Of a stretch of 64,000 nt of DNA, positions 558-63,114 are shown piece by piece. Below the pieces are notes generated by a model, which worked only from the letters and a program-made list of their open reading frames with translations, had not been told where the DNA came from and searched no databases. Positions within the stretch are counted from its first letter, which is position 1. Each line of letters starts with the position of its first letter. The DNA lies in the IMG/VR virus record IMGVR_UViG_3300007513_000013, positions 1 through 64,000 of that record; one strand, given 5' to 3'. A program made the position numbers and the translations under genes. Source of the DNA: a virus.

Positions 558-962
558 ATGAAATTAACTAAATCAAAACTTAAACAAATTATTAAGGAAG
601 AACTCTCAAATGTATTAAAAGAGGGCGACGCGATGGGTCATCATGAAGCGCCTCCTCCAAACCGGTTTGAACTAGAATACAATCAACTTAAGGCCGAGCT
701 TCAAAAAGAGTGGGAAGAAAACGATCAACAAGTCTCCGGAACTTGGCAATCTCCTGAAAAAATTACAGCTTCAGTTATACAGTATTCTAATATGGAAGAT
801 GAAGATCTGCATCACCTTGTGTCTGATGCTGTGGAAGAATATAATCAAACTCATGAAGATGAAATTCATATTGATATGGACGAGGTTTACGAAGAACTAC
901 ATTCACAAGGCTACGCAGATTATCAAAGTCAACGAGAAGACGAAGCAACAAACCCCTGGTAA
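558..962 (+). CDS. acidic probable virion/internal protein with MKLTK..IIKEEL N-terminal motif
   Basis: N-terminus MKLTKSKLKQIIKEELSNVLKE shared with ORFs at 28572, 42866, 44167, 44715, 49825. Confidence 0.7.
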   Translation: MKLTKSKLKQIIKEELSNVLKEGDAMGHHEAPPPNRFELEYNQLKAELQKEWEENDQQVSGTWQSPEKITASVIQYSNMEDEDLHHLVSDAVEEYNQTHEDEIHIDMDEVYEELHSQGYADYQSQREDEATNPW

Positions 963-985
963 AATAAAAAAGATCAAGTTTTCTC

Positions 986-6333: not shown

Positions 6334-7071
6334 ATGGAAAAACTAATCGAGAGCTGGCGAAAATTTCTTGCCGAATCAAAAGAAGAAGTTATAGCTGATA
6401 AGATAAAAGAAGTTAAATTTAATTCAATTCTTGCGCTGTCTGTTTTCAGGGACGAGGGAGCTTTAACCGAGGCACCCACCACGGCGCTTGAGTATGAAAT
6501 AAGTTTAGCTGAAACCCCAAATGAAGAAGTTGTAAAAGGGTTTCACGAATCATTATATAGCGGAGGTCGAACCGGATTTTTATCTCCTTATTCTTTTGAC
6601 GAATTGAGAGTGATGGATTTATATAAGTTAAGAGGCCACAATGCGGGATTTGCTATTAAAGATGGCGATGATATTGTTAGTGTGCACAATAATTCTAATT
6701 TATCCGGACTGGCAAATGAATTCATGAGAAAAGCAAAAGAAGTTGGCGGCGCAAGACTGGATCATTTTGATGGCTTTCTAAGTGGTCTGTACAGAAAGCA
6801 CGGGTTCACAGATGTGTACGAAATTTATCAATGGGATGAACAATACGCTCCAGAAGAATGGAGTTTTGAAAAAATAGATATCATGAACCCGTTGACTAGC
6901 GTGTATGCAGAGGCTCTAGGCTTGCTCACCCATGAGGATCCAAGCGCCTTACCAAATGAATCAGTAGAAGTTGAGGCCGAAGACGACTTAAAGCTTGACA
7001 TTAATCCAAATTTAAAATACAATAGTTACAGATATGGCCGCCCCGATGTGATCATGAGAAGGCTAGCTTAA
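6334..7071 (+). CDS. GNAT-like domain protein with MxxLIESWRKFL N-terminal motif
   Basis: GFAIKDGDDIVSVH...GGARLDHFDGFLSGLYRKHGF...WDEQYAP resembles GNAT-like domains of phage polyvalent proteins. Confidence 0.55.
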   Translation: MEKLIESWRKFLAESKEEVIADKIKEVKFNSILALSVFRDEGALTEAPTTALEYEISLAETPNEEVVKGFHESLYSGGRTGFLSPYSFDELRVMDLYKLRGHNAGFAIKDGDDIVSVHNNSNLSGLANEFMRKAKEVGGARLDHFDGFLSGLYRKHGFTDVYEIYQWDEQYAPEEWSFEKIDIMNPLTSVYAEALGLLTHEDPSALPNESVEVEAEDDLKLDINPNLKYNSYRYGRPDVIMRRLA

Positions 7072-8693: not shown

Positions 8694-9505
8694 CTGACAG
8701 GCTGGTGGTTATAGGCGGCAGCCTAAGTGCCCTGCTGTTTTCACACAAAAACAATCTACCCTTAATAATTAATCACCCAAACATACCACACCGGTTTCAG
8801 AAAATAAACTCTCTCAACATGGCTAGCCTGTGGAAAAAACTATACTTTTCTTTGTCTCTGTCCGGCTTAAACCTCATGGGAGACCAGACAGAGAATCTTC
8901 GCTTGGGAGATGGAGAACTTTTAGCAATTACCAAAAATCTCAAACACTTTAACTTTAAATTTACTGAAGCTTATGTGTTTTGCGACAAAAACATTAACGG
9001 TCTAGACAAGCCATTGAAAAAGGAAAACAACTATGATGTGTTTGATTGGATGATTGCAAAACCCTGTGAAAAACACGACATTGAACACCTAACGTCATCT
9101 GGACCATTGGCCATGGACGTGTATTTTTATCCAACAGAAAGAATGTATGGAATGCACAAAGACCAAAAAGATTTATTAGCAGTGTCTAGTCTTAAGGAAA
9201 AGCAATTAACAGATTTTGAATATTCAGACACCCATACAAGATATAAAGTTTTAAAAATGATGTCCGAAGCAGGAATAAAGGGCAAGAAAAACGGCATATC
9301 ATCTCGTGGTCAAGTTAATTATTTATTAAACCTGGAAGTGCAAAAAAGAGAAATTAAAAAGAGCAAAATGGACTCTTATAAAGACACTCAGTTTCTTAAG
9401 TTTAGATACGACTCTGTTGAATCTTTGCTGGGCGATAAAGATAACTGTCATAAATATAGTTTAAAAATAAATAAGTATTTAAATGGAAAACAAAGCATTT
9501 ATTAA
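8687..9505 (+). CDS. hypothetical protein with N-terminal Rossmann-like motif
   Basis: LVVIGGSLSALL at the N-terminus resembles GxGxxA. Confidence 0.45.
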   Translation: MLTDRLVVIGGSLSALLFSHKNNLPLIINHPNIPHRFQKINSLNMASLWKKLYFSLSLSGLNLMGDQTENLRLGDGELLAITKNLKHFNFKFTEAYVFCDKNINGLDKPLKKENNYDVFDWMIAKPCEKHDIEHLTSSGPLAMDVYFYPTERMYGMHKDQKDLLAVSSLKEKQLTDFEYSDTHTRYKVLKMMSEAGIKGKKNGISSRGQVNYLLNLEVQKREIKKSKMDSYKDTQFLKFRYDSVESLLGDKDNCHKYSLKINKYLNGKQSIY

Positions 9506-16458: not shown

Positions 16459-16676
16459 ACGACAATGTTAACCACCCAAAACACTATACAATTAATTGGA
16501 AAGGCAATAAAGCCATAGAAACTTATGATTATATCAAGTCCTGGGAGATGGGGTATGCTGAAAGCAACGTTGTTAAATATGTTACGCGGCACCCCTATAA
16601 AGGAAAGTCCCTACAGGACTTGAAGAAAGCGCGCTGGTTTCTAGATAGATTAATAGAAGAAGCGGAGGACAAATGA
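16455..16676 (+). CDS. DUF3310-type small phage protein
   Basis: DNVNHPKHYT...IET..Y....NVVKYVTR...K...DLKKARWFL. Confidence 0.85.
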   Translation: MNDNVNHPKHYTINWKGNKAIETYDYIKSWEMGYAESNVVKYVTRHPYKGKSLQDLKKARWFLDRLIEEAEDK

Positions 16677-16843
16677 AGTCTGGTGATCTCATTAAACATA
16701 AGCGTTCCGATGCTGTTGGGATAATTGTTAAAATCTCCACACAGCAAAAAGAAAAGCTAGCTACTGTGTTTTTTGCTGACAGTAAGAAGCCAAGCAGCGC
16801 GCCCCTAAAAATATTAGAAGAAAACTGGGAGGTTGTAAAGTGA
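16673..16843 (+). CDS. small MKxGDLV-family protein (56 aa, not in ORF track)
   Basis: MKSGDLIKHK..GIIVK...WEVVK. Confidence 0.6.
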   Translation: MKSGDLIKHKRSDAVGIIVKISTQQKEKLATVFFADSKKPSSAPLKILEENWEVVK

Positions 16844-18483: not shown

Positions 18484-19137
18484 ATGAGCGACAAAGAAAA
18501 AACACTTTTAAATGAGACGACCGTACGTCGTTTTATGGATTTGGCAGGTACCAAGAAGTATACGGACAATTTTTTGACCGAAGGTAAGGCTGGCGACACT
18601 TCACGTAGTGACGTTGGCAACAAGGTGCCCAAGGGCTTTGTTAATGAAGAAGAGAACCTTGAAGAAGAGAACCTTGAAGAGCAATTTGGCGCTACTCCTG
18701 AAGAGGACGAATTGGCTCTTGATGCGGCACCAGACGAATTAGCTCTTGACGATCCTATGGCAGCAGAAGAATCTCCCGCAACTGCAGGTGCAGAAGAAGT
18801 TGCAACAGCAGTTGCTCAAGCAGTTGCAAATGCAGTGGCTGAGTACGGCGTTGATATGGATGTTTCTGGCGAAGGCGACGAAGAAGAGGCAATGGAACTT
18901 GGCCCTGAAGACGAACTTGGCCCTGAAGACGAACTTGGTCCTGATATGGGCATGCCCCCTCTCCCCAACGAGGAAGAGGCTGCAGCACTGCAGGAGGCTT
19001 TCATTCGCGAACTTACTGCCAGAGTAACCCACAGAGTACAATATGCTGCTCAACAGCGCGCTCAAAAAGAACAGATTGTTGAAACAGTGATGCGACGCGT
19101 CGCCAAAAGACTACAAAAGCCCACGAAGAAAGGGTAG
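18484..19137 (+). CDS. acidic low-complexity probable head/scaffold-associated protein
   Basis: LLNETTVRRFMDLAG N-motif; EEENL x2 and LGPEDE tandem repeats; ACTAATTAC upstream. Confidence 0.6.
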   Translation: MSDKEKTLLNETTVRRFMDLAGTKKYTDNFLTEGKAGDTSRSDVGNKVPKGFVNEEENLEEENLEEQFGATPEEDELALDAAPDELALDDPMAAEESPATAGAEEVATAVAQAVANAVAEYGVDMDVSGEGDEEEAMELGPEDELGPEDELGPDMGMPPLPNEEEAAALQEAFIRELTARVTHRVQYAAQQRAQKEQIVETVMRRVAKRLQKPTKKG

Positions 19138-19148
19138 AGGAAACAAAA

Positions 19149-19808
19149 ATGTCAGAAAAACTTCTCAACGAGAGCACAATTAAACGCTTCATGAAATTGG
19201 CAAACTTGTCACCATTGTCAAATAACTTTTTGCAAGAGAAAAACGTTCCAATTGGTAAAAATCAGCCACTTAAAGGCGGCAGTTCCGGCAAACCAGAATC
19301 GGAAGAAACGAAAATGGATAGGAAGCTAGATGATACCAATCCAAAACACAGGGCATATATTGCTTCGGTAAAGGCTGGACATGCCGACATGCCGACAGGC
19401 AGGAGAAAGAAGGCTTGGGATGCATATTTCAGCGTAGAGAGCAATAGAAAGAAGTGGGAGAAGAATTTTAAGAACGAATCCGTTGAGCCGCTTGAAGAAG
19501 AAGAAGAAATTAAGAGGAAGGTCTTTACAAACACAGCGAGAAAGACAGCGCTTGACAAGGCCAAAGAGGCTAGCGGCGAACACGGCGAATCAACAGCGTA
19601 TGGCAAGCCCAGTCACGTGGCAAAAACAAAGGTGGTGGGAATACAAGATCCGGAACAGCAAATGACCGTGCCCGTTGTTGACCCAATGCAAACCCGCGAC
19701 TTACCTGATGCATCTGAAAACCTTCAAAGAGAATCTGTATTTAATTCAGATTATATCTTGCAAGAAACCTTAAAAAGAGTTATACTTAATCTTAAGGGTT
19801 CGAAATAA
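19149..19808 (+). CDS. probable virion protein, same N-motif as ORF 18484
   Basis: LLNESTIKRFMKLANL; C-terminal QETLKRVILNL. Confidence 0.55.
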   Translation: MSEKLLNESTIKRFMKLANLSPLSNNFLQEKNVPIGKNQPLKGGSSGKPESEETKMDRKLDDTNPKHRAYIASVKAGHADMPTGRRKKAWDAYFSVESNRKKWEKNFKNESVEPLEEEEEIKRKVFTNTARKTALDKAKEASGEHGESTAYGKPSHVAKTKVVGIQDPEQQMTVPVVDPMQTRDLPDASENLQRESVFNSDYILQETLKRVILNLKGSK

Positions 19809-38635: not shown

Positions 38636-38650
38636 AACAAAAGAAACTTC

Positions 38651-38679: not shown

Positions 38680-38685
38680 ATAAGC

Positions 38686-39065: not shown

Positions 39066-39071
39066 ATTAAC

Positions 39072-39599: not shown

Positions 39600-39607
39600 G
39601 CAGTAGA

Positions 39608-39808: not shown

Positions 39809-39993
39809 AAGTTGGCGATATGATTAGAGAAAAAGAGTATCCCGACGATTCGTGCGGAGTGATTGTGCATGTTGGAGACTTGCGAACAAAAAAACCATAC
39901 AAAGTCTGGTGTCCCTTTTGGCAGGGCATTATGGACTTTGATAAGAATTACGTTCAAGAGGTGTGCGAGGTCGTTAGCAGTGCAAGTAGGTGA
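39805..39993 (+). CDS. MKxGDLV-family protein
   Basis: MKVGDMIRE..GVIV..YKVW...CEVVS. Confidence 0.7.
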   Translation: MKVGDMIREKEYPDDSCGVIVHVGDLRTKKPYKVWCPFWQGIMDFDKNYVQEVCEVVSSASR

Positions 39994-40144
39994 TTTAGTT
40001 AGACAAAAACACACCCCGCAAGGCGTTTGGTTAGTTACCAAGATAGATACTATTGATGGCTGGTTTAAGGCTCAAAGCTGTGGATATCATAGCGCATGGT
40101 TGAGAACAAACGAATACGAGGTCTTGAGTCGTGGCAATAGATAA
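39980..40144 (+). CDS. MKxGDLV-family protein
   Basis: (GTG)QVGDLVRQ...YEVLS. Confidence 0.65.
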   Translation: MQVGDLVRQKHTPQGVWLVTKIDTIDGWFKAQSCGYHSAWLRTNEYEVLSRGNR

Positions 40145-42255: not shown

Positions 42256-42284
42256 TTGACAAACCTTATGTCATTTGCTATAAT
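42256..42284 (+). promoter_or_regulatory. early promoter
   Basis: TTGACA-17-TATAAT with TG extension. Confidence 0.85.
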
Positions 42285-44166: not shown

Positions 44167-44718
44167 ATGAAACTAACTAAATCACGACTACAACAAATTA
44201 TTAAAGAAGAGTTACAGGCAGTTCTCCAAGAAACCGGCCCATACCAAGATCAACATCCGGGTAGTGGCTGTGATCCTTCCGTGCAGACATGTGTTGGCCC
44301 ATCGGTTGAATTGGGTAGTGAATTTGATTACGGCGGCAAAACGGCTGATGTGGTTAGATCCTACCAAGCCGGGCAATCACGTGACATGTCACCTCATTCT
44401 AACCAAACCCTTACCGGCGATTTCCAAACACTACTAGCGCATGCAAGTGAAGTTGGAGATGCTATGGACCCGGGTATGAGGCAGCATATGCATGATTTAG
44501 GCCAAGAATTACTGGCCCGGGGCTATCCAGCCAATTTAGTTAATGCGCAATATAAGACATTTGGAATTAACCAACAACAACCACAATATAAACTGCAATT
44601 AAGAAATTTAAACAAGGCACCGGGAGAGGAGGGCTTTGTGCCCATCGATGAGTCAACAATCAAAAAACAACAACTGCAGGATATTATTCAAGAAGAATTA
44701 CGAAATGTTTTGCTATGA
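44167..44718 (+). CDS. MKLTK-motif probable virion protein
   Basis: MKLTKSRLQQIIKEEL; C-terminal QQLQDIIQEEL. Confidence 0.7.
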   Translation: MKLTKSRLQQIIKEELQAVLQETGPYQDQHPGSGCDPSVQTCVGPSVELGSEFDYGGKTADVVRSYQAGQSRDMSPHSNQTLTGDFQTLLAHASEVGDAMDPGMRQHMHDLGQELLARGYPANLVNAQYKTFGINQQQPQYKLQLRNLNKAPGEEGFVPIDESTIKKQQLQDIIQEELRNVLL

Positions 44719-45803
44719 AGTTAACCAAGGCCAAATTGCAACAAATTATCAACGAAGAATTACTAGTTTGTTTTAATGAAGAAAAAAAAATTTTGGTAAC
44801 TGAAAGCGAGGCGCGACAACCTCGTCGCGGAATGGAATACGATATCGAAAAGGCCCCTCCAATTGATTATGCTGCTGGGCGGGGTTCAACATACGAAGAT
44901 TCATATGGCGAAGAAAGGGCAGCTGCTCCTAAACAAGAGCTATCTTCTGAAGCTTGGGAAGATATTCTTCATATGGCCAACGATCCATTTTCTGTGTATC
45001 ATAACATGGCGCTTGACGCAATACGAGCTGAATTACCATCACCGTTCTTTACCCATCACATGCCGGGCATGCCGGGCCTATCGAAAAAAGAAGCTAATGA
45101 TTGGTTATATTCTACTGGCTTTAGCGGAATAGAAGGTCATGGTGAAGCTGCAGACTATGAAACAACACTTGTATCTCCCCACGTACCTGAGCAGTACGCG
45201 GGCGAAAAATCGCCCGGCCATATAGATCTATATAGGTGGGGCATTGCTCCTGGTATATATGAAGAAAACTTAAAGCGAGTCGTAAAAGAAGAATATAAAA
45301 AATTATTGGAAGAGCATGCGAAAGATTACGTTTGGGGCGTCAAGGCTCCCTACGGGCGCGCCGCCAATCAATATGAGCTAAAAACACTTCATGAATCAAA
45401 AGCTGGGATATTGCCGCCCGGGCAAGCATCACATACTCCGACCACAGCTGGTAACCCTGAAGAAGAAAAGAATTGGCCAACCGGAGGTAAATTATATCGT
45501 AAAGGGTGGCACAACAAGCCTTATGATATGTGGTACCGACACGGGCCAGCGCAAGCAAACGCCGTTCCAGTTTTTAGTCCTGCCAACCAATCTCGCGAAG
45601 GCAGCAGATGGAGCATCACACCACTTGGGTGGCCCAACGTTCAAGAAATGGACAAAATATATGGCGCTGGTGGTCTAGGCGAAGAAAGCCCTTTTCCCAT
45701 CGGCGGGCCTTATGAGCGAATATATATACCGGCCGGAATAAGGCAAGGACCTGAAATGGACGCATATATAAGAGAAAGTGCTCCATGGTTGTTTGTTGAT
45801 TAA
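44715..45803 (+). CDS. MKLTK-motif probable virion protein
   Basis: MKLTKAKLQQIINEEL; internal LKRVVKEEYKKLLEE. Confidence 0.7.
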   Translation: MKLTKAKLQQIINEELLVCFNEEKKILVTESEARQPRRGMEYDIEKAPPIDYAAGRGSTYEDSYGEERAAAPKQELSSEAWEDILHMANDPFSVYHNMALDAIRAELPSPFFTHHMPGMPGLSKKEANDWLYSTGFSGIEGHGEAADYETTLVSPHVPEQYAGEKSPGHIDLYRWGIAPGIYEENLKRVVKEEYKKLLEEHAKDYVWGVKAPYGRAANQYELKTLHESKAGILPPGQASHTPTTAGNPEEEKNWPTGGKLYRKGWHNKPYDMWYRHGPAQANAVPVFSPANQSREGSRWSITPLGWPNVQEMDKIYGAGGLGEESPFPIGGPYERIYIPAGIRQGPEMDAYIRESAPWLFVD

Positions 45804-49824: not shown

Positions 49825-50691
49825 ATGAAATTGACCAAAGAACAATTACAAAAACTAATACAAGAAGAATACCAAAATGCGCTAAGTGAGCAGGTGCATG
49901 AACCTACGAGTCCGAGGTATGACCTGATGAACGTGCCGCGGCAGTGGCAAAATGTAGCACCAGACTCTGAGGGTTTTGGTACGCAAGTTCATAAGAAGGG
50001 AGACGATGACAAAATATATGGAATGACGCGACCGGCCACCGAGGGCGAAATTGCTGATCGGTTCAACATTGGGGACGGATGGTGGGCCGATGCATTAAGA
50101 ACTGGTCGCGACACTGTTGCCAACTTTACTCCCGCTACGGATGAAATTTGGGGACACACACCATTGGAGCCCCGGACCGATGTTGAAGCGGTATATGGCA
50201 TGCCCCGAACTGAACAAGAACAAGAACATTATAAAGTACGACCTTTGGACCGGAGTGACGAAATGGAAGCCGGATATTTGACGGAATCCCTGCAACGAAT
50301 CATACAAGAAGAATACGAAACGATGGTAGGTCCAGAAATAGTAACAGATCCATTAACCGGCCAAGAGTATGAAGATCCTTACGGGGGAATTGCAGCGAAT
50401 TTAGCTACTTTTGGAGAAGCTTATCCGTTTGACTATGATCCCTATGCAGCGCCGGAGGGCTATCAAATTCCACATTTTGAACCTCCTCCTTCGTCAGGAT
50501 ATTATGGGGGCCCCCTGAATAACGCTTATATGTCGCCGGAGGAAAGTGAGGCCAATGTGATGCGCGCAGAACAGGAAAGGGCGGAGCAATTGCTACAAAT
50601 GAAATCTCTTTTAGATCCAGGGCCGGAAGGTCCAACAGAAGAGCAAGTTCGTAATGAGCTTATACGGCAAGAAATGGAAAGAAACCAGTAA
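49825..50691 (+). CDS. MKLTK-motif probable virion protein
   Basis: MKLTKEQLQKLIQEEY; internal SLQRIIQEEY. Confidence 0.7.
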   Translation: MKLTKEQLQKLIQEEYQNALSEQVHEPTSPRYDLMNVPRQWQNVAPDSEGFGTQVHKKGDDDKIYGMTRPATEGEIADRFNIGDGWWADALRTGRDTVANFTPATDEIWGHTPLEPRTDVEAVYGMPRTEQEQEHYKVRPLDRSDEMEAGYLTESLQRIIQEEYETMVGPEIVTDPLTGQEYEDPYGGIAANLATFGEAYPFDYDPYAAPEGYQIPHFEPPPSSGYYGGPLNNAYMSPEESEANVMRAEQERAEQLLQMKSLLDPGPEGPTEEQVRNELIRQEMERNQ

Positions 50692-51998: not shown

Positions 51999-53483
51999 AT
52001 GAAAGATTATTTTACAGGTTGGCGAAAATACCTTTTAGTTGAGCGCTATTCAATGCAGGCTGCGTATGAAGCCATTAAGCCCAACAACAAGAAAATGTAT
52101 AACTTATATAATAGGTACGTTAATCAGACTTGGCACTGGGACGTCGAAAACGGCTATATTGACCCAAGAGATGATCCAGAGCCGCCAGCAGATGAAGAAA
52201 AAATAAACAAAGCAGCTGCCAGTTACAGAAATTATATATTAGAAATAATACCAGAAGACATATGGGGCCCAAACGTAACAAGCCCAGAACAAAAAAAGAA
52301 AGAATCCGATAAAAATCAAGGCCTTGCAATGATGTGGGTTCGCAAATTAGCCCTTAAGGATCCAAATCTAGCCAGAGATATTATAGATGGCGAAATATCA
52401 TTTACAGGTCAAGGTCGACCTTATGCAAATATTATGCCCGACCTTGAAATCTACTTCCAAAATCTAGATTTAATGCCAAAAAGGAACTTAATAGAGCTTG
52501 AATCATTTGAAGAATTGCATCAAATGGTAGAAGCGGCAAAAGAAGAAATTCATGCTCGACAACAAGAAAGACAATACCTCGACGCAGAAGAGGGAACAGA
52601 AGTTTTAAGAGATGATGGGGAAATATATATTGCCGCTCTCCACAATAAAGGCGCTGCATGCGAATTGGGAAAAGGAACAGATTGGTGTACAGCTGCGCCC
52701 GGTTTAGATTATTTTTCAGACTATTATGAGCCAGATGATCCATTGTTCTTTTTTAAACGGAAACCGAAAACCGATCCGGATAAGCCTGAATTTATGCAGC
52801 GCGGCCACAAATCTCATCCGGGTGGTGAAGAAAAATATCAATTTCATTATGGCTCTGAACAATTTGTGAATGTGGAGGACTACCCGGTCAGTGATAAACT
52901 ATTCAAAGTACTTCACGGTTTTCTTATGCAAACAGAAGCACCACAAAAATATCCAGTTGTACAAACCTATCACTACAATCTCGTGGCCGATGATCCAAGC
53001 ACACCTCCAGAAGAGTTGAATGATATGGTTGAAGCGTTTGGGAATCTCTTGACCACCCATGATCATTACCACGCGGGTTTGACGTCTGAAGTCTTGTCAA
53101 AAGTTGCAAAAAACCCAAACACGCCAATTGAAGCACTTAGAAAACTTTCTAATTCGCGCGATAAATTTATTATTAGAAGCGTTCAAGTTAACGAACAGTT
53201 GGCGAATTTATTAGGCCCTGACCCAACAGAAGAGGGCATGAAATTAGCAAAAGAAATATTCCTCAACAATATAGAAGATCCACTAATATTTGACAGAGGT
53301 TTGAAACAATTCGGCCGCTGGATAAAGGCTGGAATAATGTCCAAAGAAGAAGCAAATAAAGCATTAAAGGATCATGTGGAGGCAGAAGAATTCCGCAAAA
53401 AGGCAAAAAAGGTTGCAAGGTCTGATGGGGGGTCTCAAGCAACATTAAGAGAGCGCAAGATCAGAATAAGGATAAAGAAATGA
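51999..53483 (+). CDS. probable ejection protein, paralogue of ORF 26383 domain, with helical repeats
   Basis: MKDYFTGWRKYL; GKGTDWCTAA; VAKNPNTPIEALRKL; C-terminal RKIRIRIKK. Confidence 0.7.
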   Translation: MKDYFTGWRKYLLVERYSMQAAYEAIKPNNKKMYNLYNRYVNQTWHWDVENGYIDPRDDPEPPADEEKINKAAASYRNYILEIIPEDIWGPNVTSPEQKKKESDKNQGLAMMWVRKLALKDPNLARDIIDGEISFTGQGRPYANIMPDLEIYFQNLDLMPKRNLIELESFEELHQMVEAAKEEIHARQQERQYLDAEEGTEVLRDDGEIYIAALHNKGAACELGKGTDWCTAAPGLDYFSDYYEPDDPLFFFKRKPKTDPDKPEFMQRGHKSHPGGEEKYQFHYGSEQFVNVEDYPVSDKLFKVLHGFLMQTEAPQKYPVVQTYHYNLVADDPSTPPEELNDMVEAFGNLLTTHDHYHAGLTSEVLSKVAKNPNTPIEALRKLSNSRDKFIIRSVQVNEQLANLLGPDPTEEGMKLAKEIFLNNIEDPLIFDRGLKQFGRWIKAGIMSKEEANKALKDHVEAEEFRKKAKKVARSDGGSQATLRERKIRIRIKK

Positions 53484-53871: not shown

Positions 53872-54077
53872 GTCATCTAAAAGACAATGACGAAACATAC
53901 ATTAGTCATTTTTTATTTGCAGGAAAGATTGGGTTAACTTTAATTTTTAGAGGAACTATATTTTTATTGCATGCACTGTTTCCGATAGCTGATGTACCAA
54001 AGCGCTGGAACTTGTTTGCTACAATATCAGAACTAAAAGAGTGGCACTCTTATACAATTACGAGAAAAAACAAATGA
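53868..54077 (+). CDS. small hypothetical protein
   Basis: HLKDNDETYISHF..HALFP. Confidence 0.55.
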   Translation: MSHLKDNDETYISHFLFAGKIGLTLIFRGTIFLLHALFPIADVPKRWNLFATISELKEWHSYTITRKNK

Positions 54078-54592
54078 AACTATTATTTGAAAATTGGCGA
54101 AGGTACTTGAAAGAAGACAAGGATATAGATTCTGTTGTTAAAGTTGTTATTTTAAACGATGAAAATAAAATTTTAATTTTAAAACGAAGTGATGATGAAA
54201 TGTGGAATTTACCGGGTGGCCACATGAAAGAAAATGAAAGCGAAGAAGAAGGTGCAAAAAGAGAAGTCTCCGAAGAAACTAATTTAGCTGTTGAGAACTT
54301 GAAGCCAATTGGTGAAAAAGGCAAAATAAAGTACTATGAATCTAAGGAGTTTAGTGGTATAATAGAGTTAAATGAAGAACACACAGAATATGTGTGGGAG
54401 AACAGCGAGGAGATTGCAAACAAGGATATGCATCAAAAAGATAAAGACATTATAACTGAAAAGTATAATAAATTAGAAGAGTTTGATACAAATATCCCAG
54501 GCCAAACACTGGTTTATGGAGATCCCAATAATGCCGGTGGATTAAATACAAAGCCTAAAAAGTTTGCTGACGAAGAAAATGAAGGAAGTTAA
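54074..54592 (+). CDS. Nudix hydrolase with MKLLFENWR motif
   Basis: Nudix box LPGGHMKENESEEEGAKREVSEETNL; start at ATG 54074. Confidence 0.9.
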   Translation: MKLLFENWRRYLKEDKDIDSVVKVVILNDENKILILKRSDDEMWNLPGGHMKENESEEEGAKREVSEETNLAVENLKPIGEKGKIKYYESKEFSGIIELNEEHTEYVWENSEEIANKDMHQKDKDIITEKYNKLEEFDTNIPGQTLVYGDPNNAGGLNTKPKKFADEENEGS

Positions 54593-55178
54593 TAATTTAG
54601 TAAAAGAATGGAAGAAATTTTTATTAAAAGAAGATAAAACCTACCAAATATATTGTGATATGGATGGCGTTTTAGTAGATCTGGTTGGTGCCGTCTTAGA
54701 AAAGGCACAAAAAAATGCAAAAGATGAAAAGTTAAGAAAAGGTGTTGAAAAAATTCTAGCCATTGATTGGAGATGGACGGAAAAGAATCCAAAATACCAG
54801 AAATCTTTAGATTATATTGATAACATGGTAAGCAATAATGTAGAATTTTGGGCAACATTGCCCCCAACATCAGATAAAGACGTTTTGTGGAGTTATATTT
54901 CACAATATGATCCAATTATCCTTTCTCACCCATGGGATGGAGAGTCTGCAGAGGGGAAAAGAGTGTGGGTTTCGAATTTAATAGATCCTCAACCAATTGA
55001 TGTGATACTAACAGGCGACAAACACAGGCATGCTACAACAAAAGATGGTAAACCCAACATTTTAATTGATGATTTTGAAAAATATACTGTCCCATGGGAG
55101 CAAGCAGGGGGCATTGCCATACTACATACTTCTGCAGAGGACACAATAAGCAAACTTAAGGCTTTAATGGAGCAATAA
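54579..55178 (+). CDS. HAD-family 5'(3')-nucleotidase with related EWKKFL motif
   Basis: IYCDMDGVLVD, GKRVW, ILIDDF. Confidence 0.85.
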   Translation: MKEVNNLVKEWKKFLLKEDKTYQIYCDMDGVLVDLVGAVLEKAQKNAKDEKLRKGVEKILAIDWRWTEKNPKYQKSLDYIDNMVSNNVEFWATLPPTSDKDVLWSYISQYDPIILSHPWDGESAEGKRVWVSNLIDPQPIDVILTGDKHRHATTKDGKPNILIDDFEKYTVPWEQAGGIAILHTSAEDTISKLKALMEQ

Positions 55179-55925
55179 ATGAAGAAATTATTTGAAAATT
55201 GGCGAGGATTAATTAAAGAATCAAGGGGTCCAAAGGGTTTTCACTATAAAATTACACAAAGTTCCAAAACAATAGTGATTTTGCCTTTAAGTTTGCAAAC
55301 TAATGAACCAGAACCAGGAAAAGCAGAGGGAAATGCAGAGGTTGTTCTTGAAAAACGCACAGATATTCCCAATTGGCAGCTAGCATGGTCTAATGCACCT
55401 GCTGATTCAGAGGGTGTTGGTACGATAATGTACCTAATGGCACTAGAATTAGCCGGAAATGAAGGTTTATCCCCCGATGATTACGATCAAAGTGATGATG
55501 CACTACGTGTTTGGGCCAAATTTATGCCCGAAAACAATAGATTTGGTGTTTCTAAGGTCAAAAAAGAGCAATTTGCCCACGATAACGATGAAAATCCCTT
55601 CTTTTTTGTGTTCTACAAGCCGAATAGAGCCATTTTAAGCCGCTTTAAGGACCGTATATCGTATGAGGAGGGGTCGGAGGAAGAAAAGCCCGTCAAAGAG
55701 CCTGATATTGAGCCGTTCGACGTTGAAAATGACTGGGATTCTCTCTATGATGACGAAATATTGCAAGAAGAAGAGCCCTATCAGAAGAAAGTGAAGAAAA
55801 AACACCGCAGAATGAAGGTTAGACTGATTGGAAAGGGCAAAAACAAGCATAATGTGGGCAAAAAGATGAAAAAGCCGTCTTATAAGCGATCAAAAAGCGC
55901 TCCACCGGGCGCTGGTGGCTCTTAG
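55179..55925 (+). CDS. GNAT-like protein with MKKLFENWR motif and basic tail
   Basis: EGVGTIMYLMAL...LSPD..QSDDALRVW; C-terminal KRSKSAPPGAGGS. Confidence 0.6.
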   Translation: MKKLFENWRGLIKESRGPKGFHYKITQSSKTIVILPLSLQTNEPEPGKAEGNAEVVLEKRTDIPNWQLAWSNAPADSEGVGTIMYLMALELAGNEGLSPDDYDQSDDALRVWAKFMPENNRFGVSKVKKEQFAHDNDENPFFFVFYKPNRAILSRFKDRISYEEGSEEEKPVKEPDIEPFDVENDWDSLYDDEILQEEEPYQKKVKKKHRRMKVRLIGKGKNKHNVGKKMKKPSYKRSKSAPPGAGGS

Positions 55926-56194: not shown

Positions 56195-58129
56195 ATGCAG
56201 CATATGCCCTATAAGAACCTTGCAAGAATTATATTAGAAGAGTATTATAAGCTTATAAGCGAGTCAAAGGGCAAACTACCATCGACTATAAGCAAAATAG
56301 GTAAACCGGTTCGTATACCTACGCCTAGGCTTCCAACTATTAGGCCTGGTTTGTTAAACCTCGGAAAAACCAGCAAAATAGGACAGACTGGTCATGTTCC
56401 GGATGACGTGGGAGCGCCGCTCGAAGGTGAATTTACATATAGACCTTATGATCTTGAAGCGGCGCCGGTAAAAGAATTGACGCCTGCTGTTGGCGCGCCG
56501 CATGTAGAACCACATGGCCAGAACGTGCAGTATTTAGGGGTGCGCGAGGCTCCGGGTGAACCTGTAGATTATAGCGCGCTAAGAACGGAACTTGGTGGCA
56601 TGCTGGCGCCACATTTTCGAAAAGAACCTGTAAATCCACAAAACTATAGTAGGGTGGCAATGCCGGGAGACGAAGGAAATTTAACGGTTCGGCCATCATA
56701 TGAACAATTTGAAGAACTAGCACCAAGTGGTTTGCGCGATGTAATAAAAAGCATCACAGCGGATGTAAGGGCGGGGGTTATTACTCCACACGATGCTGCT
56801 AGCTTTGTAATCGAGTATTATCCCCGTGAAGCAATGCAATGGCACACAAGACGAGGATATCTTGCGGATGTAGAAAAAGCAGTTAAAGCAAAGATAAAAA
56901 GCATCGATCTTTACCCTAGTGCTGAAAAAGTTGCGTTAGAAAAGTTAAGATTGAAAGCTGCAGAAGCTTTTGAAGCAAACAGACCGGTGGGAGTTGCAAG
57001 CACCGGAAGGCTTGATTTATCAGGTGGTTCAACCATGGAAATACTAGCTCAAGAAAAGGCAGTTATAGACAGCATTGCTCCAAGCTTGGCGCGCCAGTAT
57101 TATGGTAAGGATTATGGTAATTTAACACCTGGAGAAAGAGCGACTGTTCAGGGTATTAGTAAAAACACGCTTGATAGTATAAAAAATACGCCCCCAGCGC
57201 AACTTCGTAAAAATATTGCAAATTTGGAGGCGCGCCAAGGCCAACAGAACCCATGGGAAAAGGCTGGAGTCTCGAAAAAGCTATGGGACGAAGATGTTGC
57301 TGCGAGATGGGGACAATTAATTGATGAAGTACACCCAATGGTAGTAGATTATTATGTCGACGGAATTCGCAGTGGAAAAATTACGGGGCGCGCCCTACAA
57401 CTTGCGCGTGGAACATGGATGAAAGATCCTTTTTATCGCGCAATTGTAAACAAACTGGAGGAACCCTCGCTTATCATCACTGATCATACCAAAGAACCTG
57501 CGATGACCGTTCGAAGGGACTTTAGCGAAGATCCGCGGGGCGTAACGGTTGTTGAACCCACAAAAACACACGAGGATTACGCACCCGGGATGTCTCTTGA
57601 AGATTTTAAAGGCGTTGAGGCGCCGAGTAATTCGGAATTGGCGTGGGCTCGTCACAGGGCACATACGCAAAGGGGCCATGAGGATACAGGCCAACTCATT
57701 CCCGGAAGAACATATGGGATTCAAGCTTATGAGAGAGCGGTGAGCGAGATAGGGCGTCTAGGCATGCCTTTAACTCCCGGAGAAATAAGAGAATTGGCAA
57801 CTAACAGCCCTACAGCATTGCGTGTATATCGCGACATTTTAAATTTGGGATGGGATGAGCACATTGCGCCCGGCCTCAGAACGCCACGAGTGCGCGTTCC
57901 GGAGCGTGGGTTCGATTGGGACACACACTTACAAGACGTGGAACGGGAGATACAAAGGTTTGGGTATTCTCGTTCGGCTGCAGATGTATGGGGTGAAAAT
58001 CCACGTGGTGGTCTAACAGTTGTTGATGAGACACCGCCAAGAAGAAGAGGTCGCATGACAGAATTTGACGAAGCTAAAAAAATAGTACAGAAAGAATACC
58101 AAAAGTTATTGTTGGAAATCAAGAAATGA
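56195..58129 (+). CDS. large probable ejection protein
   Basis: LARIILEEYYKLISE N-motif, C-terminal KIVQKEYQKLLLE; N-terminal paralogy with ORF 58126. Confidence 0.7.
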   Translation: MQHMPYKNLARIILEEYYKLISESKGKLPSTISKIGKPVRIPTPRLPTIRPGLLNLGKTSKIGQTGHVPDDVGAPLEGEFTYRPYDLEAAPVKELTPAVGAPHVEPHGQNVQYLGVREAPGEPVDYSALRTELGGMLAPHFRKEPVNPQNYSRVAMPGDEGNLTVRPSYEQFEELAPSGLRDVIKSITADVRAGVITPHDAASFVIEYYPREAMQWHTRRGYLADVEKAVKAKIKSIDLYPSAEKVALEKLRLKAAEAFEANRPVGVASTGRLDLSGGSTMEILAQEKAVIDSIAPSLARQYYGKDYGNLTPGERATVQGISKNTLDSIKNTPPAQLRKNIANLEARQGQQNPWEKAGVSKKLWDEDVAARWGQLIDEVHPMVVDYYVDGIRSGKITGRALQLARGTWMKDPFYRAIVNKLEEPSLIITDHTKEPAMTVRRDFSEDPRGVTVVEPTKTHEDYAPGMSLEDFKGVEAPSNSELAWARHRAHTQRGHEDTGQLIPGRTYGIQAYERAVSEIGRLGMPLTPGEIRELATNSPTALRVYRDILNLGWDEHIAPGLRTPRVRVPERGFDWDTHLQDVEREIQRFGYSRSAADVWGENPRGGLTVVDETPPRRRGRMTEFDEAKKIVQKEYQKLLLEIKK

Positions 58130-61100
58130 AAAAAAAGAAAATCACCATCAAGATGAACGAATCAAAAAGCAAATTACCATCAACTTTAAGTAAAATAGGC
58201 AAACCTAGACCACCAGGGCCATCGCTTAAGCTACCAGTTATTAGGCCTGATTTATTAAAAATTGGCAGCCCCACTATTTCAAACACTCCACGAGCAGTAG
58301 ATGCGCCACTTGAGGGTGAATTTGTATATAAACCTTATGATCCTGATGTATTAAAACCAGAGGTGCATTTGATGCCGAAGCCGCCGGAGACACCTGATCT
58401 TGCGCGCGGGAAGCAGCCTGATTACGATTGGCTGGAAAGCGAGGTTACACCTGCGGCACCAGTAGAAACTCCAGTTATAGAGCCGTGGGAGTCGCCATTA
58501 CGTTTAGACGACCGACAGCCATTAATGGCAGCCAGGGAAGAAGAAAAGCTGGTTAATGGTTTGAAAAATTTTCTTGCGAAAGAATACTCAAGCGGCCGGT
58601 ATAAGGAAAAATGGTTAGATGCCGGGGTACCAGAAAAAGTGTACGATGAGCTTGTTTTGCCGCGCGTAATAAAAAAAATCAACGCCACGCCAATAATTAT
58701 TTCAAGTCAAACACCTGATGGGCTTAACCCAGAAATATGGGAGAGGGCTGGTGGCGTATATGCCCCGCCGGGTGCAACTGGGACACCATGGGGGAGCGTA
58801 CAAATAAGAACACCATCAGATATAGCAAAATATTCCACCGGAGGCATGTCGACCTTGGGAACACTGGCTCATGAAGTTGGCCATGGTTTTTCTTATGATC
58901 CATATTTGGTTGCAATTTACAACAAATTCAGAAGTGCTCCTAATCCTGCGCAAGAGTTCCTAGCAAACAAAGCATTAGTTAGGAGCGGCATACCGGCTGA
59001 AATTATTCCGTATCTCAAATCGCACGGCTTAAGTGCAGCGCAGCAAGGTCTTTATCGTTACTACCCTCCGGAGCATGCGCAATCCATTTATATACCAACT
59101 GCTACACTGGCTCAAATGCAGGCTTATGAGCTAGATAGTTTACTTGATCTTGGTCAGCATGGCGGCCAGATTGGAGACCGTCTAACACCTGGAGAATTGC
59201 TGGGTTATAAATGGGCGCAAAATTTTAAAAAATATCGTGCTGGAGACACTTCTCCAGAAGTGAAGGAAGCTGCTCTTCAGGAATATAAATGGCGAAGCAA
59301 TATAGAGGAAATATATGCAGATGTAAAAGCAGTTGATGCTATTTTAAAGCGCCCAATGACAGGGAATGATATTAGAGAAACTTGTATGGGAGTTCGTACT
59401 GTTGGTTCGGCTGCAATAAATGCTGTCCCTTCGTTTAGGGATTTTTTAAATTGCAAACACCCTGAAAAGGCTGCTTCTATATTCAACAAAATAGTCCAAA
59501 TCGGCATTGCTGGTACTGGTGCTGCAGCTGTTGGTGCTTCCGAGGGAGATGGATCACAAAGCTTAAAAGAAGATACACAAAATAAAATAAACAAAATTAT
59601 TTCTGAAGAAATTGAGAAAATGTTGTTAGAGGCACCTGTGATACCCGCTTCTTTTGCCGATTATTTAGATACACCGCATGCAGCTGCTCTTCGAAGAAAA
59701 ATGGACTTCTTAGGTTCAAAACATTCTCTCCCCTACCCTCAAAGCATGGACGTACGCCCGAAGGAAGAAATCGGTGGTGGTTATACAGACGAATTTGGCT
59801 TGAAGCATCAAAAAGGTTCACAGCGCGTGACGCCCGGAGAGCAACTTAAGCACGAAATTGCAATGGGCGGCATGAACTGGAAACAAGGTGTCCCGGGATA
59901 TTATTTACCATGGGGCGGCCCTAAAGATCCTAAAGATCCCCGCGGGGCGCCAAGAGGTTGGATATATCAAGGGCCCGGAACACGAGAAGGTGGGGGTTCC
60001 ACACCGGTTCCTCCGCAAAGAATGGGCGGCTCTAGTGCTCTAAAAAAAGATCCGAGTGGTTATTTTCAAAGATTTGGAAAGGGCAAACGAACTTGGTCTG
60101 GTGTGCCAAGAGGAAAAAATAAAGGACTGAGATATGGCTACATTCCCGGCTCAGAATTAAAGGCGAAAGTGGACGAATACACCAAAACGAGAAACATACA
60201 CAAAGATCTAGAAGACGAAACGTGGCAAAATTACAGAGGCCGCTCAAGTTTTTTCAGTGAAGATTCCGGAGATTTAGATGGTCCGATTGTTCGCTCATAT
60301 CAAGATCCAAAAACAGGCAAGTGGCATCAAACCACAATTGTACCGATGGCAGATCCATATAGGCAGGGACCGGATCCCAGTAAAGAGGGAAAGTCATCAT
60401 GGTTAGATCTGTTTACTGGTGGCGGATCTGGTGTGGGATGGACTGGCATGCCACACACTGGTCCAAGCGCATCGCGGCAGCTAGAATTAAACAAAGAAAG
60501 AATGCGTCGGTGTGCAAATGATCCTAAATGTCTTGATAAATTAAAATCAAAATGGGAAAAATCTAAATATTTCCCTGGAGCAACAGAAGGGTTCGGAAAT
60601 CTTCCTCTCATGTGGCCTGGATGGGAACAACTTACAGATTATTGGACCGGAATACAGTCGCCCGGAACGCATCGTGCTGCCCTACCAGATGAAAGCAGTT
60701 ATCTACGACATTTGGGTGTACCCAAGAAAGCTACACAAAAGGTTTTTAATAAAAAAGATTGGCATTATTTAAACGACAGAGAGAAAGAGGTCGCTAGTTT
60801 TAACTATTGGGAGCGCAAAGAGAATAAAGATAGAATTCCTGAACTTTTGAAAAAACAAGAATCTGGTGATCTTACCGATAGAGAAAGACTGGAACTAAAA
60901 GGGTTAACGTATGTAAAGGAGTTTAGTAAAATCGCAGACAAATACAAAAAAGCGATGGGCCCGGGCTATGAATATTCTAACCCTGCATATGCAGGTGACG
61001 TTCCTTATCAGTTTAATCTTTTCACAGATCCTATAGAAGTAACTCCAGCCGGTATACCGGCCATGCTTTGGAGAGGGCTAGCCAAGGGAGGCTTACGGAA

Positions 61101-63114
61101 TATGTACAGATCATTGAAAAGTGGACAGCCTATGCCAACTGGTTTAGGTGGCGAAATTACCCCAAGGCTGGCTCATTGGTCAGAATCTCCGGTGTTGGCG
61201 AGGCTAGCTCCAAAAACAATAGACGCGGCGCAGTCTGCAGAGCTAATGCGCCAGGCGAAAGCCGCAACTGATCCTACGCAGTTGGCCAAAGGAGCAGTAG
61301 TTGGGCCCGGGGCACTTCCGGGTGGTGAGCAAATAATACGTCCATATGAAATACCAACGCCCAAGGGGCCAAAGCCGTTTGAGCCGGTAAGAGTCGACGT
61401 AGAAAAAAGCGAAGCCTTTAAACACATTCATCAACAAGTTAAGGCTTTAAAAGATTGGCATCAAGCTAATTTTGGTGCAAGGAATTCGGTCGAAATTGAA
61501 AATATCAAAAAAGGAATAACACAACAAGCGGTAACTGGTAGGCTTTATGACCTAGAAGACCTCAAACATATAATCATCGATCTTAAAACTAGTGGCGGTT
61601 GGGCAAGAAATCCATTTGCGGAGCTTTCACAAATAAAATATGATCCTAGGTTACTTGAAGAATCCTTAGACAGCTTGAAAAACGTTGTTCTAGGAAAATT
61701 ACAGAGTTTATTAAACGAAGACAAAGATATAGTTCTGGAAGAAATAAAGCCGCCCAAGCCCTACAAACCCAAGACTGTCAATTATAAATTTTCGTTTGGA
61801 AGAATTGGAGAGGAGCCTTTAGAAGAGCGTGATGGCGACAAACTTCATTATGGAGCATCGATGAATAAGCCTGTTTTGGCTTTTATCAATCTTGTTCTGG
61901 CCAAAAGAAAAGTCAAGCAACAGCAAACAGGAAAACCAATTAGAGCGCTAACTGATAAAGAGCTTTCAGATTTGATTACATATACAAATTACAAAGGTGG
62001 CTCAAATAAGGTTAATAGAGCTTTAAGCAATCTTCGTTATAATCCAAAAAATCCAAAAAACGATAGAGATTACTATAAAAAACTCAGCAAACAAGTAGGA
62101 ATAACACAAGAACAAACACGAGAAATGTTAAAAGAACTTGAAATTGATAATGTAATTGGTGGCGTTCGATGGGGTGGGGCGAACAACAGGCAATCGCCGC
62201 GGGGTTATAGCCAATTCATGTCTAAAATGCTACAATATAAGTCCAATCCGGATTCTGAATTTCATGATGAGGCCACTAAAGTATTATATTATATGCAACA
62301 CCGGCATGACAAGAGGAATACTGGTGCAAAAGGTTTAAAAAAATATTTAAATAAAAGACTAGAGAAAGAAGGGTATGGCAAAGATGCCATACAAACAATA
62401 TATGGAAAAGGCGGATATGTAAAGGGTACCCTAAACTACTCCATCGTTATAAATGATAAATATGTCCTATCTTTGTATACAAAGTCTAAAAAACCTAAAG
62501 CATCTTCATATAAAATGAGACCAGACTTACATAAGATATCGGCTGATATTATCTTACGTAACCTCGATCCAGAAGAGTTAGGTGTTGGTGGTTATGATCG
62601 ATTAAAACAGGACACGGAAATAGAAGGCTGGAATCAAAGAGAGATGGATAGAGTAGAGAAACTAGCTACTTGGGATGTTATTTCACCAGAGGACATGATG
62701 TCTGCACAAAAAATTGATGCACTAGTACCTCAAGAGGTGGACAAAGCAGTTGACCTAGATAGAGCAGAAGAGGAGCCAGATCTGCCATTGAGCAAAGAAA
62801 GACTAAATGAAGAAAAGCAACATATTGCGGTTGATATTGTACTAAAGTATAATAACGACTTTTCATTCTATGGCTATGTGTTAAATCAAATTAGAGCAAT
62901 TGATGGAATTACAATTGCAAAGGCGGATGAAGCTGGTGTTGTAGATGTTTCGCCCGAACGTCAACAAATTTTATTGCACCTTAAGTTTATGCCAATTGGC
63001 TCACTTTCACGTTATTTTTGGTATCTAAAAAATGAGCTAAAGAAGATACAGGATGCCAGTGGCGACAAGATCGACAGTGTACAAATTCGCGGAATCCCAC
63101 GACAAATAGATTAA
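58126..63114 (+). CDS. 1662-aa multidomain (polyvalent-type) probable ejection protein with HExxH and beta-lactamase-like domains
   Basis: LAHEVGH (58864-58884); GASMNK / SNKVN / KGGY motifs near the C-terminus; domains separated by L-x-E linkers. Confidence 0.75.
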   Translation: MKKKKITIKMNESKSKLPSTLSKIGKPRPPGPSLKLPVIRPDLLKIGSPTISNTPRAVDAPLEGEFVYKPYDPDVLKPEVHLMPKPPETPDLARGKQPDYDWLESEVTPAAPVETPVIEPWESPLRLDDRQPLMAAREEEKLVNGLKNFLAKEYSSGRYKEKWLDAGVPEKVYDELVLPRVIKKINATPIIISSQTPDGLNPEIWERAGGVYAPPGATGTPWGSVQIRTPSDIAKYSTGGMSTLGTLAHEVGHGFSYDPYLVAIYNKFRSAPNPAQEFLANKALVRSGIPAEIIPYLKSHGLSAAQQGLYRYYPPEHAQSIYIPTATLAQMQAYELDSLLDLGQHGGQIGDRLTPGELLGYKWAQNFKKYRAGDTSPEVKEAALQEYKWRSNIEEIYADVKAVDAILKRPMTGNDIRETCMGVRTVGSAAINAVPSFRDFLNCKHPEKAASIFNKIVQIGIAGTGAAAVGASEGDGSQSLKEDTQNKINKIISEEIEKMLLEAPVIPASFADYLDTPHAAALRRKMDFLGSKHSLPYPQSMDVRPKEEIGGGYTDEFGLKHQKGSQRVTPGEQLKHEIAMGGMNWKQGVPGYYLPWGGPKDPKDPRGAPRGWIYQGPGTREGGGSTPVPPQRMGGSSALKKDPSGYFQRFGKGKRTWSGVPRGKNKGLRYGYIPGSELKAKVDEYTKTRNIHKDLEDETWQNYRGRSSFFSEDSGDLDGPIVRSYQDPKTGKWHQTTIVPMADPYRQGPDPSKEGKSSWLDLFTGGGSGVGWTGMPHTGPSASRQLELNKERMRRCANDPKCLDKLKSKWEKSKYFPGATEGFGNLPLMWPGWEQLTDYWTGIQSPGTHRAALPDESSYLRHLGVPKKATQKVFNKKDWHYLNDREKEVASFNYWERKENKDRIPELLKKQESGDLTDRERLELKGLTYVKEFSKIADKYKKAMGPGYEYSNPAYAGDVPYQFNLFTDPIEVTPAGIPAMLWRGLAKGGLRNMYRSLKSGQPMPTGLGGEITPRLAHWSESPVLARLAPKTIDAAQSAELMRQAKAATDPTQLAKGAVVGPGALPGGEQIIRPYEIPTPKGPKPFEPVRVDVEKSEAFKHIHQQVKALKDWHQANFGARNSVEIENIKKGITQQAVTGRLYDLEDLKHIIIDLKTSGGWARNPFAELSQIKYDPRLLEESLDSLKNVVLGKLQSLLNEDKDIVLEEIKPPKPYKPKTVNYKFSFGRIGEEPLEERDGDKLHYGASMNKPVLAFINLVLAKRKVKQQQTGKPIRALTDKELSDLITYTNYKGGSNKVNRALSNLRYNPKNPKNDRDYYKKLSKQVGITQEQTREMLKELEIDNVIGGVRWGGANNRQSPRGYSQFMSKMLQYKSNPDSEFHDEATKVLYYMQHRHDKRNTGAKGLKKYLNKRLEKEGYGKDAIQTIYGKGGYVKGTLNYSIVINDKYVLSLYTKSKKPKASSYKMRPDLHKISADIILRNLDPEELGVGGYDRLKQDTEIEGWNQREMDRVEKLATWDVISPEDMMSAQKIDALVPQEVDKAVDLDRAEEEPDLPLSKERLNEEKQHIAVDIVLKYNNDFSFYGYVLNQIRAIDGITIAKADEAGVVDVSPERQQILLHLKFMPIGSLSRYFWYLKNELKKIQDASGDKIDSVQIRGIPRQID

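Follow-up and report, generated by a model that had tools for sequence, protein, structure and literature searches.

The capsid-targeting sequence (CTS) of the internal proteins of bacteriophage T4 and its removal by the protease gp21 were reportedly described by Mullaney and Black in 1996. T4 loads the proteins IPI-III and Alt into the core of its prohead via this sequence of 10 residues, which is then taken off by gp21 (PMC9026906, PMC9958956, PMC3012670). Targeting depends on residues 4 and 7 of the CTS and processing on residues 8 and 10 (I-A-E), with gp21 cutting after the Glu, and Alt possesses propeptides at both ends (PMC9026906). The internal proteins of the T-even phages form a highly diverse set in which the CTS alone is conserved (PMC3012670). 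In the present study, we analysed a stretch of 64,000 nucleotides of viral DNA (the window), which comprises the first 64 kb of the 118,471-bp IMG/VR record IMGVR_UViG_3300007513_000013 (CheckV completeness 65%). Two different short leaders, tag A and tag B, start several of the proteins encoded there. Judging from their genomic context and from the precedent of T4, these leaders probably constitute a capsid-targeting system that is removed by a protease like the CTS of T4, with leaders that are longer, belong to two classes and are often repeated in one protein.

Short portable peptides that send diverse cargo into an HK97-fold shell are also known from encapsulins. However, these cargo-loading peptides are usually C-terminal and are not removed, neither a protease nor DNA packaging is involved, and the shells are cellular compartments and not virions. 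In the giant phages phiKZ, 201phi2-1 and SPN3US, gp21-like proteases process the propeptides of inner-body and ejection proteins by cleavage behind (S/A/G)-x-E (PMC5694885, PMC7411985). The similarities to the system proposed here are the processing of many head proteins after Glu by a gp21 homologue, the multiple cleavage sites per protein and the conserved N-terminus among paralogues. In contrast, the propeptides of the giant phages mostly exceed 100 residues in length and do not represent a short portable tag, and their cargo largely consists of conserved paralogue families instead of freely swapped cassettes.

Within the window, tag A, MK(L/I)TKxxLxx(I/L)IxEE(L/Y), starts six open reading frames (ORFs; at 558, 28572, 42866, 44167, 44715 and 49825) and tag B, MKxL(F/I)E(N/S)WRxxΦxE, starts four (at 6334, 26383, 54074 and 55179). 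Regular expressions for motif A, a looser core of motif A and motif B matched 7, 12 and 4 sites on the plus strand, respectively, and none on the minus strand; nearly all genes of the window are encoded on the plus strand. An all-versus-all comparison of the first 20 residues of the 144 predicted proteins (BLOSUM62 score ≥ 30) gave 21 pairs versus 0 for an internal control segment, and the N-termini fell into exactly two clusters, which are the six A and the four B ORFs. With hidden Markov model (HMM) profiles built from the window tags, the N-terminal copies obtained independent E-values (iE) of 1e-13 to 2e-7 for tag A and 5e-11 to 3e-7 for tag B. The same profiles revealed a second copy in five of the six tag A proteins, namely from residue 126 in 28572, residue 152 (with its own Met) in 42866, residue 179 in 44715, residue 149 in 49825, and at residues 163-183, the very C-terminus, in 44167. 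The ten starts had already been proposed by a first-pass annotation of this DNA, and regular expressions and HMMs agree with it. Its statement that the cargo behind the motifs is unrelated also holds true: BLASTP past residue 30 detected only the pairs 26383/51999 and 56195/58126.

There is clear evidence that it is the peptide which is conserved. Codon identity between the window tags is 60% at third positions versus 75% at first and second positions for tag A, and 50% versus 68% for tag B, while the 30 nucleotides 5' of the tags are unrelated (about 30% identity). Selection acts on the leader peptide rather than on the DNA, and the synonymous variation together with the unconserved upstream DNA rules out that the common N-termini primarily go back to a conserved cassette for regulation or recombination. 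A secretion signal was ruled out by the sequence as well, since the tags are charged and amphipathic and lack a hydrophobic core.

The tags are by no means restricted to the window. Among 1.84 billion proteins, the tag A profile matched 8,943 representative protein clusters (50% identity) at E ≤ 0.001. The first copy is located at residue 1 in 121 of the 127 best proteins, most of which contain two to four copies, and in 28 of 239 multi-copy proteins a tag is found at the very C-terminus. Of 118 occurrences of tag B, 115 are N-terminal. Conservation in tag A amounts to 94-100% for K2, T4, K5, L8, I12, E14 and E15 (I/V12 100%, E14 100%, E15 94-98%), and in tag B E6 and W8 reach 100%, L/I/V12 98% and E14 85%. 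These conservation profiles show that two otherwise different leaders share a hydrophobic residue 12 and a Glu at residue 14, so that the hydrophobic-x-Glu pattern of a gp21-type site is present at residues 12-14 of both. A second hydrophobic-x-Glu at residues 20-22 occurs in 38-60% of the tag A copies. The first-pass annotation had each motif end in L-x-E; this applies to most of them, but 28572 lacks the distal site and in 26383 the site is shifted. The pair of hydrophobic-12 and Glu-14 is therefore the better invariant. Internal copies of tag A retain the Met in 61% of the cases, with Glu at -3 and Lys at -1. Judged by sequence, such internal Met-tags with Shine-Dalgarno-like sequence upstream could serve as additional sites of translation initiation, result from recent fusion, or mark the joints at which a polyprotein is cleaved. 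For a check of Shine-Dalgarno sequences, the DNA of the protease-centred loci described below contained only one internal Met-tag.

The head genes of the clade to which the phage belongs are known from its relatives. No close relative was detected on the DNA level among 50,697 GenBank phage records. T4-type baseplate wedge proteins are encoded beyond the window in the 118-kb record, and with one of them as query 145 related IMG/VR stretches were found. All five long relatives identified in this way possess a gp21-type protease (S77, 1e-31 to 3e-34) and also tag A. The complete relative G001 (189.7 kb) encodes a T4-type terminase, a portal protein (Portal_T4, 1.8e-76), the protease (Peptidase_S77, 3.6e-31) and a Gp23-type capsid protein (5.8e-74), and synteny indicates that the part missing from the record of the window corresponds to 63-147 kb of G001, where this head module is located. 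In the protease of the clade, the motifs GELxHP and SSRG retain their His and Ser, respectively, and an LLRE near its N-terminus resembles the LIE-9 at which T4 gp21 cleaves itself (PMC9026906). The G001 capsid protein has its best matches in Flavobacterium phage immuto, with 47% identity, and in Microcystis phage Mel-JY01 and Rhodothermus phage RM378. By this protein sequence, the phage belongs to the Far-T4 / Immutovirus neighbourhood, with the placement made on G001 and not on the record of the window. The Far-T4 group was described in PMC4360716, where leaders of this type are not mentioned.

The distribution of the tags in this clade is strongly biased towards the protease. Scanning 80 protease-centred loci (0.92 Mb) with both profiles yielded 116 tags (72 A and 44 B), every one of them on the strand of the protease, versus none in 80 baseplate-centred loci (1.39 Mb). 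The tags peak upstream of the protease at -2 to 0 kb and at -11 to -6 kb, the latter before the genes for terminase and portal, and in the ORF directly 3' of the protease gene. Gene 21 of T4 is flanked by the core genes 67, 68 and 22, and the peaks occupy the same positions. In all five relatives, tag A, tag B or an evident variant of them is found at the start of an ORF that adjoins the protease. The association is also found in the reverse direction: when IMG/VR contigs were picked solely because their DNA matched a degenerate pattern of tag A, nine of the ten longest contained a Peptidase_S77, including both 100%-complete genomes, and the one contig without it has a completeness of 62%. Shorter versions of the tags (MKKSQLRQIIKE…) are also present in the cultured Flavobacterium phage immuto (vB_FspM_immuto, host Flavobacterium sp. 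LMO8), among others on an ORF of 73 residues between portal and protease; the conserved Glu corresponds to residue 12 in the numbering of immuto.

The comparison with T4 reveals extensive parallels. In both cases, a short leader at residue 1 is found on unrelated proteins and ends in hydrophobic-x-Glu, a gp21-type protease, a T4-type portal and a T4-type capsid protein are present (in the clade), and the cargo genes are highly variable among relatives. Tag B even has the pattern M-K-x-hydrophobic-x-E … hydrophobic-x-E in common with the T4 CTS (MKTYQEFIAE, confirmed at two places of the T4 genome), and the tags at the C-terminus recall the propeptides at both ends of Alt. There are also differences: the leaders described here comprise 14-22 residues versus 10 in T4 and have no significant sequence similarity to the CTS, two classes occur in one genome, at least ten cargoes per genome including enzymes are tagged versus four in T4, the tags are often repeated within a protein or C-terminal, and packaging and cleavage are predicted here. 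The polymorphic internal-protein loci of the T-even phages, which are connected with anti-restriction (PMC3012670, PMC9026906), likewise encode hypervariable small proteins with only the leader conserved and with breakpoints at the leader. However, the scale is far larger here, considering the number of tag A clusters, and the lineage is marine and uncultured. On every feature that can be tested by sequence, the system appears to match that of T4, with leaders that do not seem to be homologous.

Among the cargo of tag B are HAD phosphatases, Nudix hydrolases and a GDSL hydrolase. In these enzymes, the N-terminal catalytic motif begins 1-8 residues past Glu14 with linkers of variable length, which indicates that the tag is an add-on to a normal enzyme start. 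The cargo is hypervariable. In BLASTP, 476 cargo units from 255 tag A proteins (median unit about 108 residues) formed 321 clusters, 250 of which are singletons, and for the tag cluster at 42-67 kb hardly any orthologues exist in G001, whose own tagged genes lie at the syntenic place. Some metagenomic proteins reveal the breakpoints directly. P0012 is 98.8% identical to the product of 42866 over residues 1-173 (unit 1 plus the second tag) and then diverges completely, P0042 is unit 2 of the same product as a free-standing gene starting with the internal Met, and P0010 and P0012 diverge right behind the tag. Cargo is swapped exactly at the tag, and the divergence directly after it and the free-standing unit 2 argue that the tag is also the joint of cassette exchange.

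Directly seen are thus the tags with their location at residue 1 and their invariant positions, the diversity and exchange of the cargo, the T4-type head genes found in the clade and the massing of tags by the protease. A mechanism that would account for them is the following. Beginning with residue 1 of the cargo protein, the leader would form a short amphipathic helix and bind to one of the components of the scaffolding core, and in this way the cargo would become part of the prohead. A gp21-type protease would then cut after hydrophobic-x-Glu, which is residues 12-14 in both tags, and often at additional predicted sites (residues 20-22 for tag A, 4-6 for tag B). The cut would release mature cargo within the head, and surviving cargo would leave together with the DNA at infection. 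Tandem proteins of the type tag-cargo-tag-cargo could be cut into several cargoes or might also be translated from their internal Met-tags. Since the leader is the only sequence that the tagged proteins have in common, it could double as a recombination joint for cargo cassettes between phages. Going further, one could imagine a general, programmable delivery system, in which two interchangeable leaders with a common invariant core of 14 residues load thousands of cargo families into T4-type heads, including active enzymes (Nudix, HAD nucleotidase, GDSL hydrolase) and polyproteins of several cargoes that the prohead protease separates, for injection with the DNA, and in which the leader serves as the joint of trade; this broader proposal is put forward tentatively and has slightly less than an even chance of being correct.

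Several observations speak against a capsid-targeting function. We found no virion proteomics for a tag-bearing phage in the papers searched. In comparison with the CTS and the core and head proteins of T4 (gp67, gp68, gp21, gp22 and gp23), the tag profiles had no significant similarity, and the resemblances IDLIKEEKI in gp67, QLLIETW in gp21 and ELLNKWKPLLEGE in gp23 are not significant and can be used as leads only. A tblastn search with the tag against the GenBank phage records mentioned above also gave nothing significant. The residue following the proposed cut in tag A is itself an invariant Glu, and the frequent Met of internal copies is compatible with internal starts and with recent fusions no less than with joints for cleavage. 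The first-pass annotation had suggested to look for the prohead protease; a search for Peptidase_S77 in the 118-kb record, which lacks about 65 kb of the genome, found none, and it is the relatives and the tag-selected contigs that supply it. Four tagged genes sit amid replication genes, and a perfect extended sigma-70-type promoter (TTGACA-17-TATAAT with TG, 42256-42284), approximately 580 bp 5' of the main tag A cluster, may mean early expression of these genes. The T4 genes for internal proteins are likewise scattered over the genome, which softens the objections concerning position and promoter. Finally, the Nudix and HAD enzymes could equally be cytoplasmic enzymes of nucleotide metabolism.

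Some of these points would suit a different role, with the leader being a docking helix that is not removed and that binds another partner, for instance a phage enzyme complex, the phage GroEL or a host target. The metabolic enzymes among the cargo (Nudix, HAD/NT5C) are ordinary ones, some tagged genes lie amid replication genes and near the gene for GroEL, and a sigma-70-like promoter precedes the main cluster. Nevertheless, we consider this role unlikely, as it leaves unexplained why the tags are massed at the protease and its flanking ORFs but absent from the tail regions, why two different tags agree in hydrophobic-12 and Glu-14, and why they co-occur almost perfectly with a gp21-type protease. 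It is also conceivable that the small tagged proteins are scaffold or core filler, i.e. paralogues of the gp67/gp68 kind that are degraded at maturation, so that little or nothing is ejected. This differs from a system for capsid targeting and delivery only in the fate of the cargo, since targeting and cleavage are common to both. Most cargo units of tag A are indeed short, acidic and without recognisable fold, the conserved core-position protein by the protease starts with a tag-A-like helix (MKKxxLKKLIKPLVKEC…), T4 gp67 contains the IDLIKEEKI stretch, and gp22, gp67 and gp68 of T4 are broken down to peptides. However, it makes little sense to put tag B on enzymes with intact catalytic motifs (HAD DxDxT, Nudix, GDSL) if these are disposable filler, and turnover over thousands of clusters combined with cassette exchange resembles the cargo of an arms race, not a structural scaffold, which is why we regard filler as quite improbable.

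The exchange of cargo exactly at the tag could also mean that the leader is nothing but a DNA joint for recombination or mobility, or a translation-start cassette, encoding a peptide without specific function. The location of tags at gene junctions and C-termini, the internal copies retaining Met and Shine-Dalgarno-like upstream sequence, and two CTS-coding stretches of T4 that are identical in DNA would all be in line with this. On the other hand, the synonymous sites differ, the upstream DNA is unrelated, and specific residues are 97-100% invariant over hundreds of distant copies. The invariance of residues in combination with synonymous variation means that the peptide itself is selected and that recombination at the tag is rather a consequence than the function; a pure DNA joint is therefore very improbable.

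If the leaders are head-loading signals, as we favour, a plain sequence motif would reveal the injected proteome of a very abundant and largely uncultured group of marine phages. Proteins that are injected besides the DNA are known for a few model phages only. The approximately 9,000 tagged clusters would then represent a catalogue of candidate injected effectors for counter-defence or takeover, with thousands of small proteins and several enzymes likely aimed at the defence or the early takeover of the host. The leaders would further provide natural tags that are both new and short and that could serve for the packaging of foreign proteins into phage heads, comparable to the use of the T4 CTS. 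With immuto, a cultured relative with similar tags gives an experimental handle.

All individual proteins described in the following are encoded on the plus strand. The tag A protein of 558-962 (134 residues) consists of the tag (558-623, iE 1e-13), an indel-prone linker and an acidic cargo, and its orthologues P0002-P0006 keep the tag while linker and cargo vary. A conserved C-terminal motif …REDEATNPW in this family (558-962 and P0002-P0006) might represent another signal or serve for binding. The protein of 28572-29231 (219 residues) has two copies of tag A (28572-28637 and, internally, 28947-29012; iE 2e-7 each). In the two-unit protein of 42866-44062 (398 residues), the first tag is located at 42866-42931 (iE 3e-8) and the second, which has its own Met, at 43319-43384 (iE 1e-9); GAGGA is present 5' of the internal ATG at 43319, and unit 2 has a Lys-rich tail. 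The protein of 44167-44718 (183 residues) is tagged at both ends (44167-44232 and 44653-44715; iE 1e-12 and 3e-6), and its relative P0019 has more cargo beyond the second tag. Weaker internal copies follow the N-terminal ones in the proteins of 44715-45803 (362 residues; tag 44715-44780, iE 3e-9; internal copy 45249-45314, iE 0.01) and 49825-50691 (288 residues; tag 49825-49890, iE 2e-8; internal copy 50269-50334, iE 0.01).

Among the tag B proteins, that of 6334-7071 (245 residues; tag 6334-6375 with L12-A13-E14, iE 3e-7) has a cargo matching phrog_2563, a PHROG of unknown function, and that of 26383-28563 (726 residues; tag 26383-26433, iE 2e-7) has its Glu moved to residue 17 and a cargo related to 51999 (BLASTP 2e-7). 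The protein of 54074-54592 (172 residues; tag 54074-54115, iE 5e-11) is a Nudix hydrolase (Pfam NUDIX, residues 21-127, 9.8e-17). No fold was recognised for the protein of 55179-55925 (248 residues; tag 55179-55220, iE 2e-9): the AlphaFold2 model of its family from eight sequences was too poor to use (predicted local distance difference test score 41), and the ESM Atlas returned viral hypothetical proteins only plus a faint hint of GNAT. In general, Pfam and PHROGs yielded only Nudix, a weak NT5C and PHROGs of unknown function for the tagged proteins, and sequence searches of the PDB with four cargoes gave no match. Of the cargo types named by the first-pass annotation, Pfam recognises Nudix and, weakly, HAD/NT5C (9.5e-5).

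The genes for the Nudix hydrolase, the HAD/NT5C-like protein and the 55179 family are neighbours in the window (54074-55925) and are variously fused in relatives (P0132, P0176, P0193 and P0197), either as tag B-Nudix-55179 family, with fusions of the 55179 family to Nudix in P0132, P0176 and P0193, or as tag B-HAD-Nudix. These varied fusions suggest that the three act in one pathway, perhaps in the breakdown of nucleotides or signal nucleotides.

The remaining members of the proposed tag set are less certain. The protein of 51999-53483 (494 residues) is probably a diverged tag B protein with the N-terminus MKDYFTGWRKYLLVE, but its HMM match is not significant (iE 0.55). The HAD/NT5C-like nucleotidase of 54579-55178 has an N-terminal extension of about 19 residues ending in L-K-E, possibly a diverged tag B that the HMM did not detect, and the NT5C of phage immuto has a similar leader. 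In the 644-residue protein of 56195-58129, a shortened tag A might start from the Met at 56204 (…LARIILEEYYKLISE; iE 0.46, not significant), and the 1662-residue protein of 58126-63114 has one loose internal match to the regular expression for the tag A core near 59587, without support by the HMM. Variants at 56204, 51999 and 54579, although plausible by eye, could thus not be substantiated with the profiles, and the recurrence of motif A claimed for seven proteins applies to 28572, 42866, 44167, 44715 and 49825 but not to 56195 and 58126. Since these variants are not significant, the number of robustly tagged proteins is approximately ten and not about 16, the rest being weak variants or proteins with a third motif, C. 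The proteins of 56195-58129 and 58126-63114 have a different second N-proximal motif in common, SK(G/S)KLPST(I/L)SKIGKP…RP(G/D)LL (BLASTP 5e-8), which is unlike tags A and B.

Motif C, LL(N/T)E(S/T)x(V/I/L)(R/K)RFMxLA, starts the proteins at 18484 and 19149 (18484-19808). They are a real pair of tandem acidic paralogues with long acidic low-complexity tails, encoded in the replication region beside the gene for GroEL, and a single counterpart exists in G001 (163773-164492). As nothing ties this pair to the head or the tags, we rejected motif C as part of the system and regard it as a separate paralogue family. The first-pass idea of a modular address tag with a T4-type protease accordingly gains independent evidence from genomic context, whereas motif C and several of the variants fall outside of it.

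Some further observations concern the surroundings of the protease. Directly 3' of it, or separated by one short tagged ORF, there is a conserved protein of about 140 residues (G001 106703-107140, L087 2373-2771, L091 1983-2399) that starts with the tag-A-like helix MK(K/R)xxLKKxLKP(L/I)IKEC…EEG. Going by its sequence and position, it may be the ancestral core protein which gave rise to tag A. A gp22-like scaffold protein is encoded at 117325-118509 of G001. In phage immuto (L183), a further leader class, ME(N)xF(D/N)LKKFLVENKLT…, is found on several ORFs (8763-9311, 22588-23888 and 30198-30425), and the ORF right after the protease starts with the related leader MENNFDIHKWQAKFLKES.

The window also encodes a DnaB-like helicase, a DNA polymerase III alpha-like protein and GroEL. 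ARAGORN identified tRNA-Arg(tct), tRNA-Leu(taa) and tRNA-Met(cat) in the window (43-115 and 1586-1748) but did not call a split tRNA-Val at 1222-1431. Finally, there is a large expansion of small ORFs that start with M(K/Q)(V/I)GDLV and are SH3/KOW-like (30939-40144, 986-1216 and 16673-16843), members of which are also present in G001.

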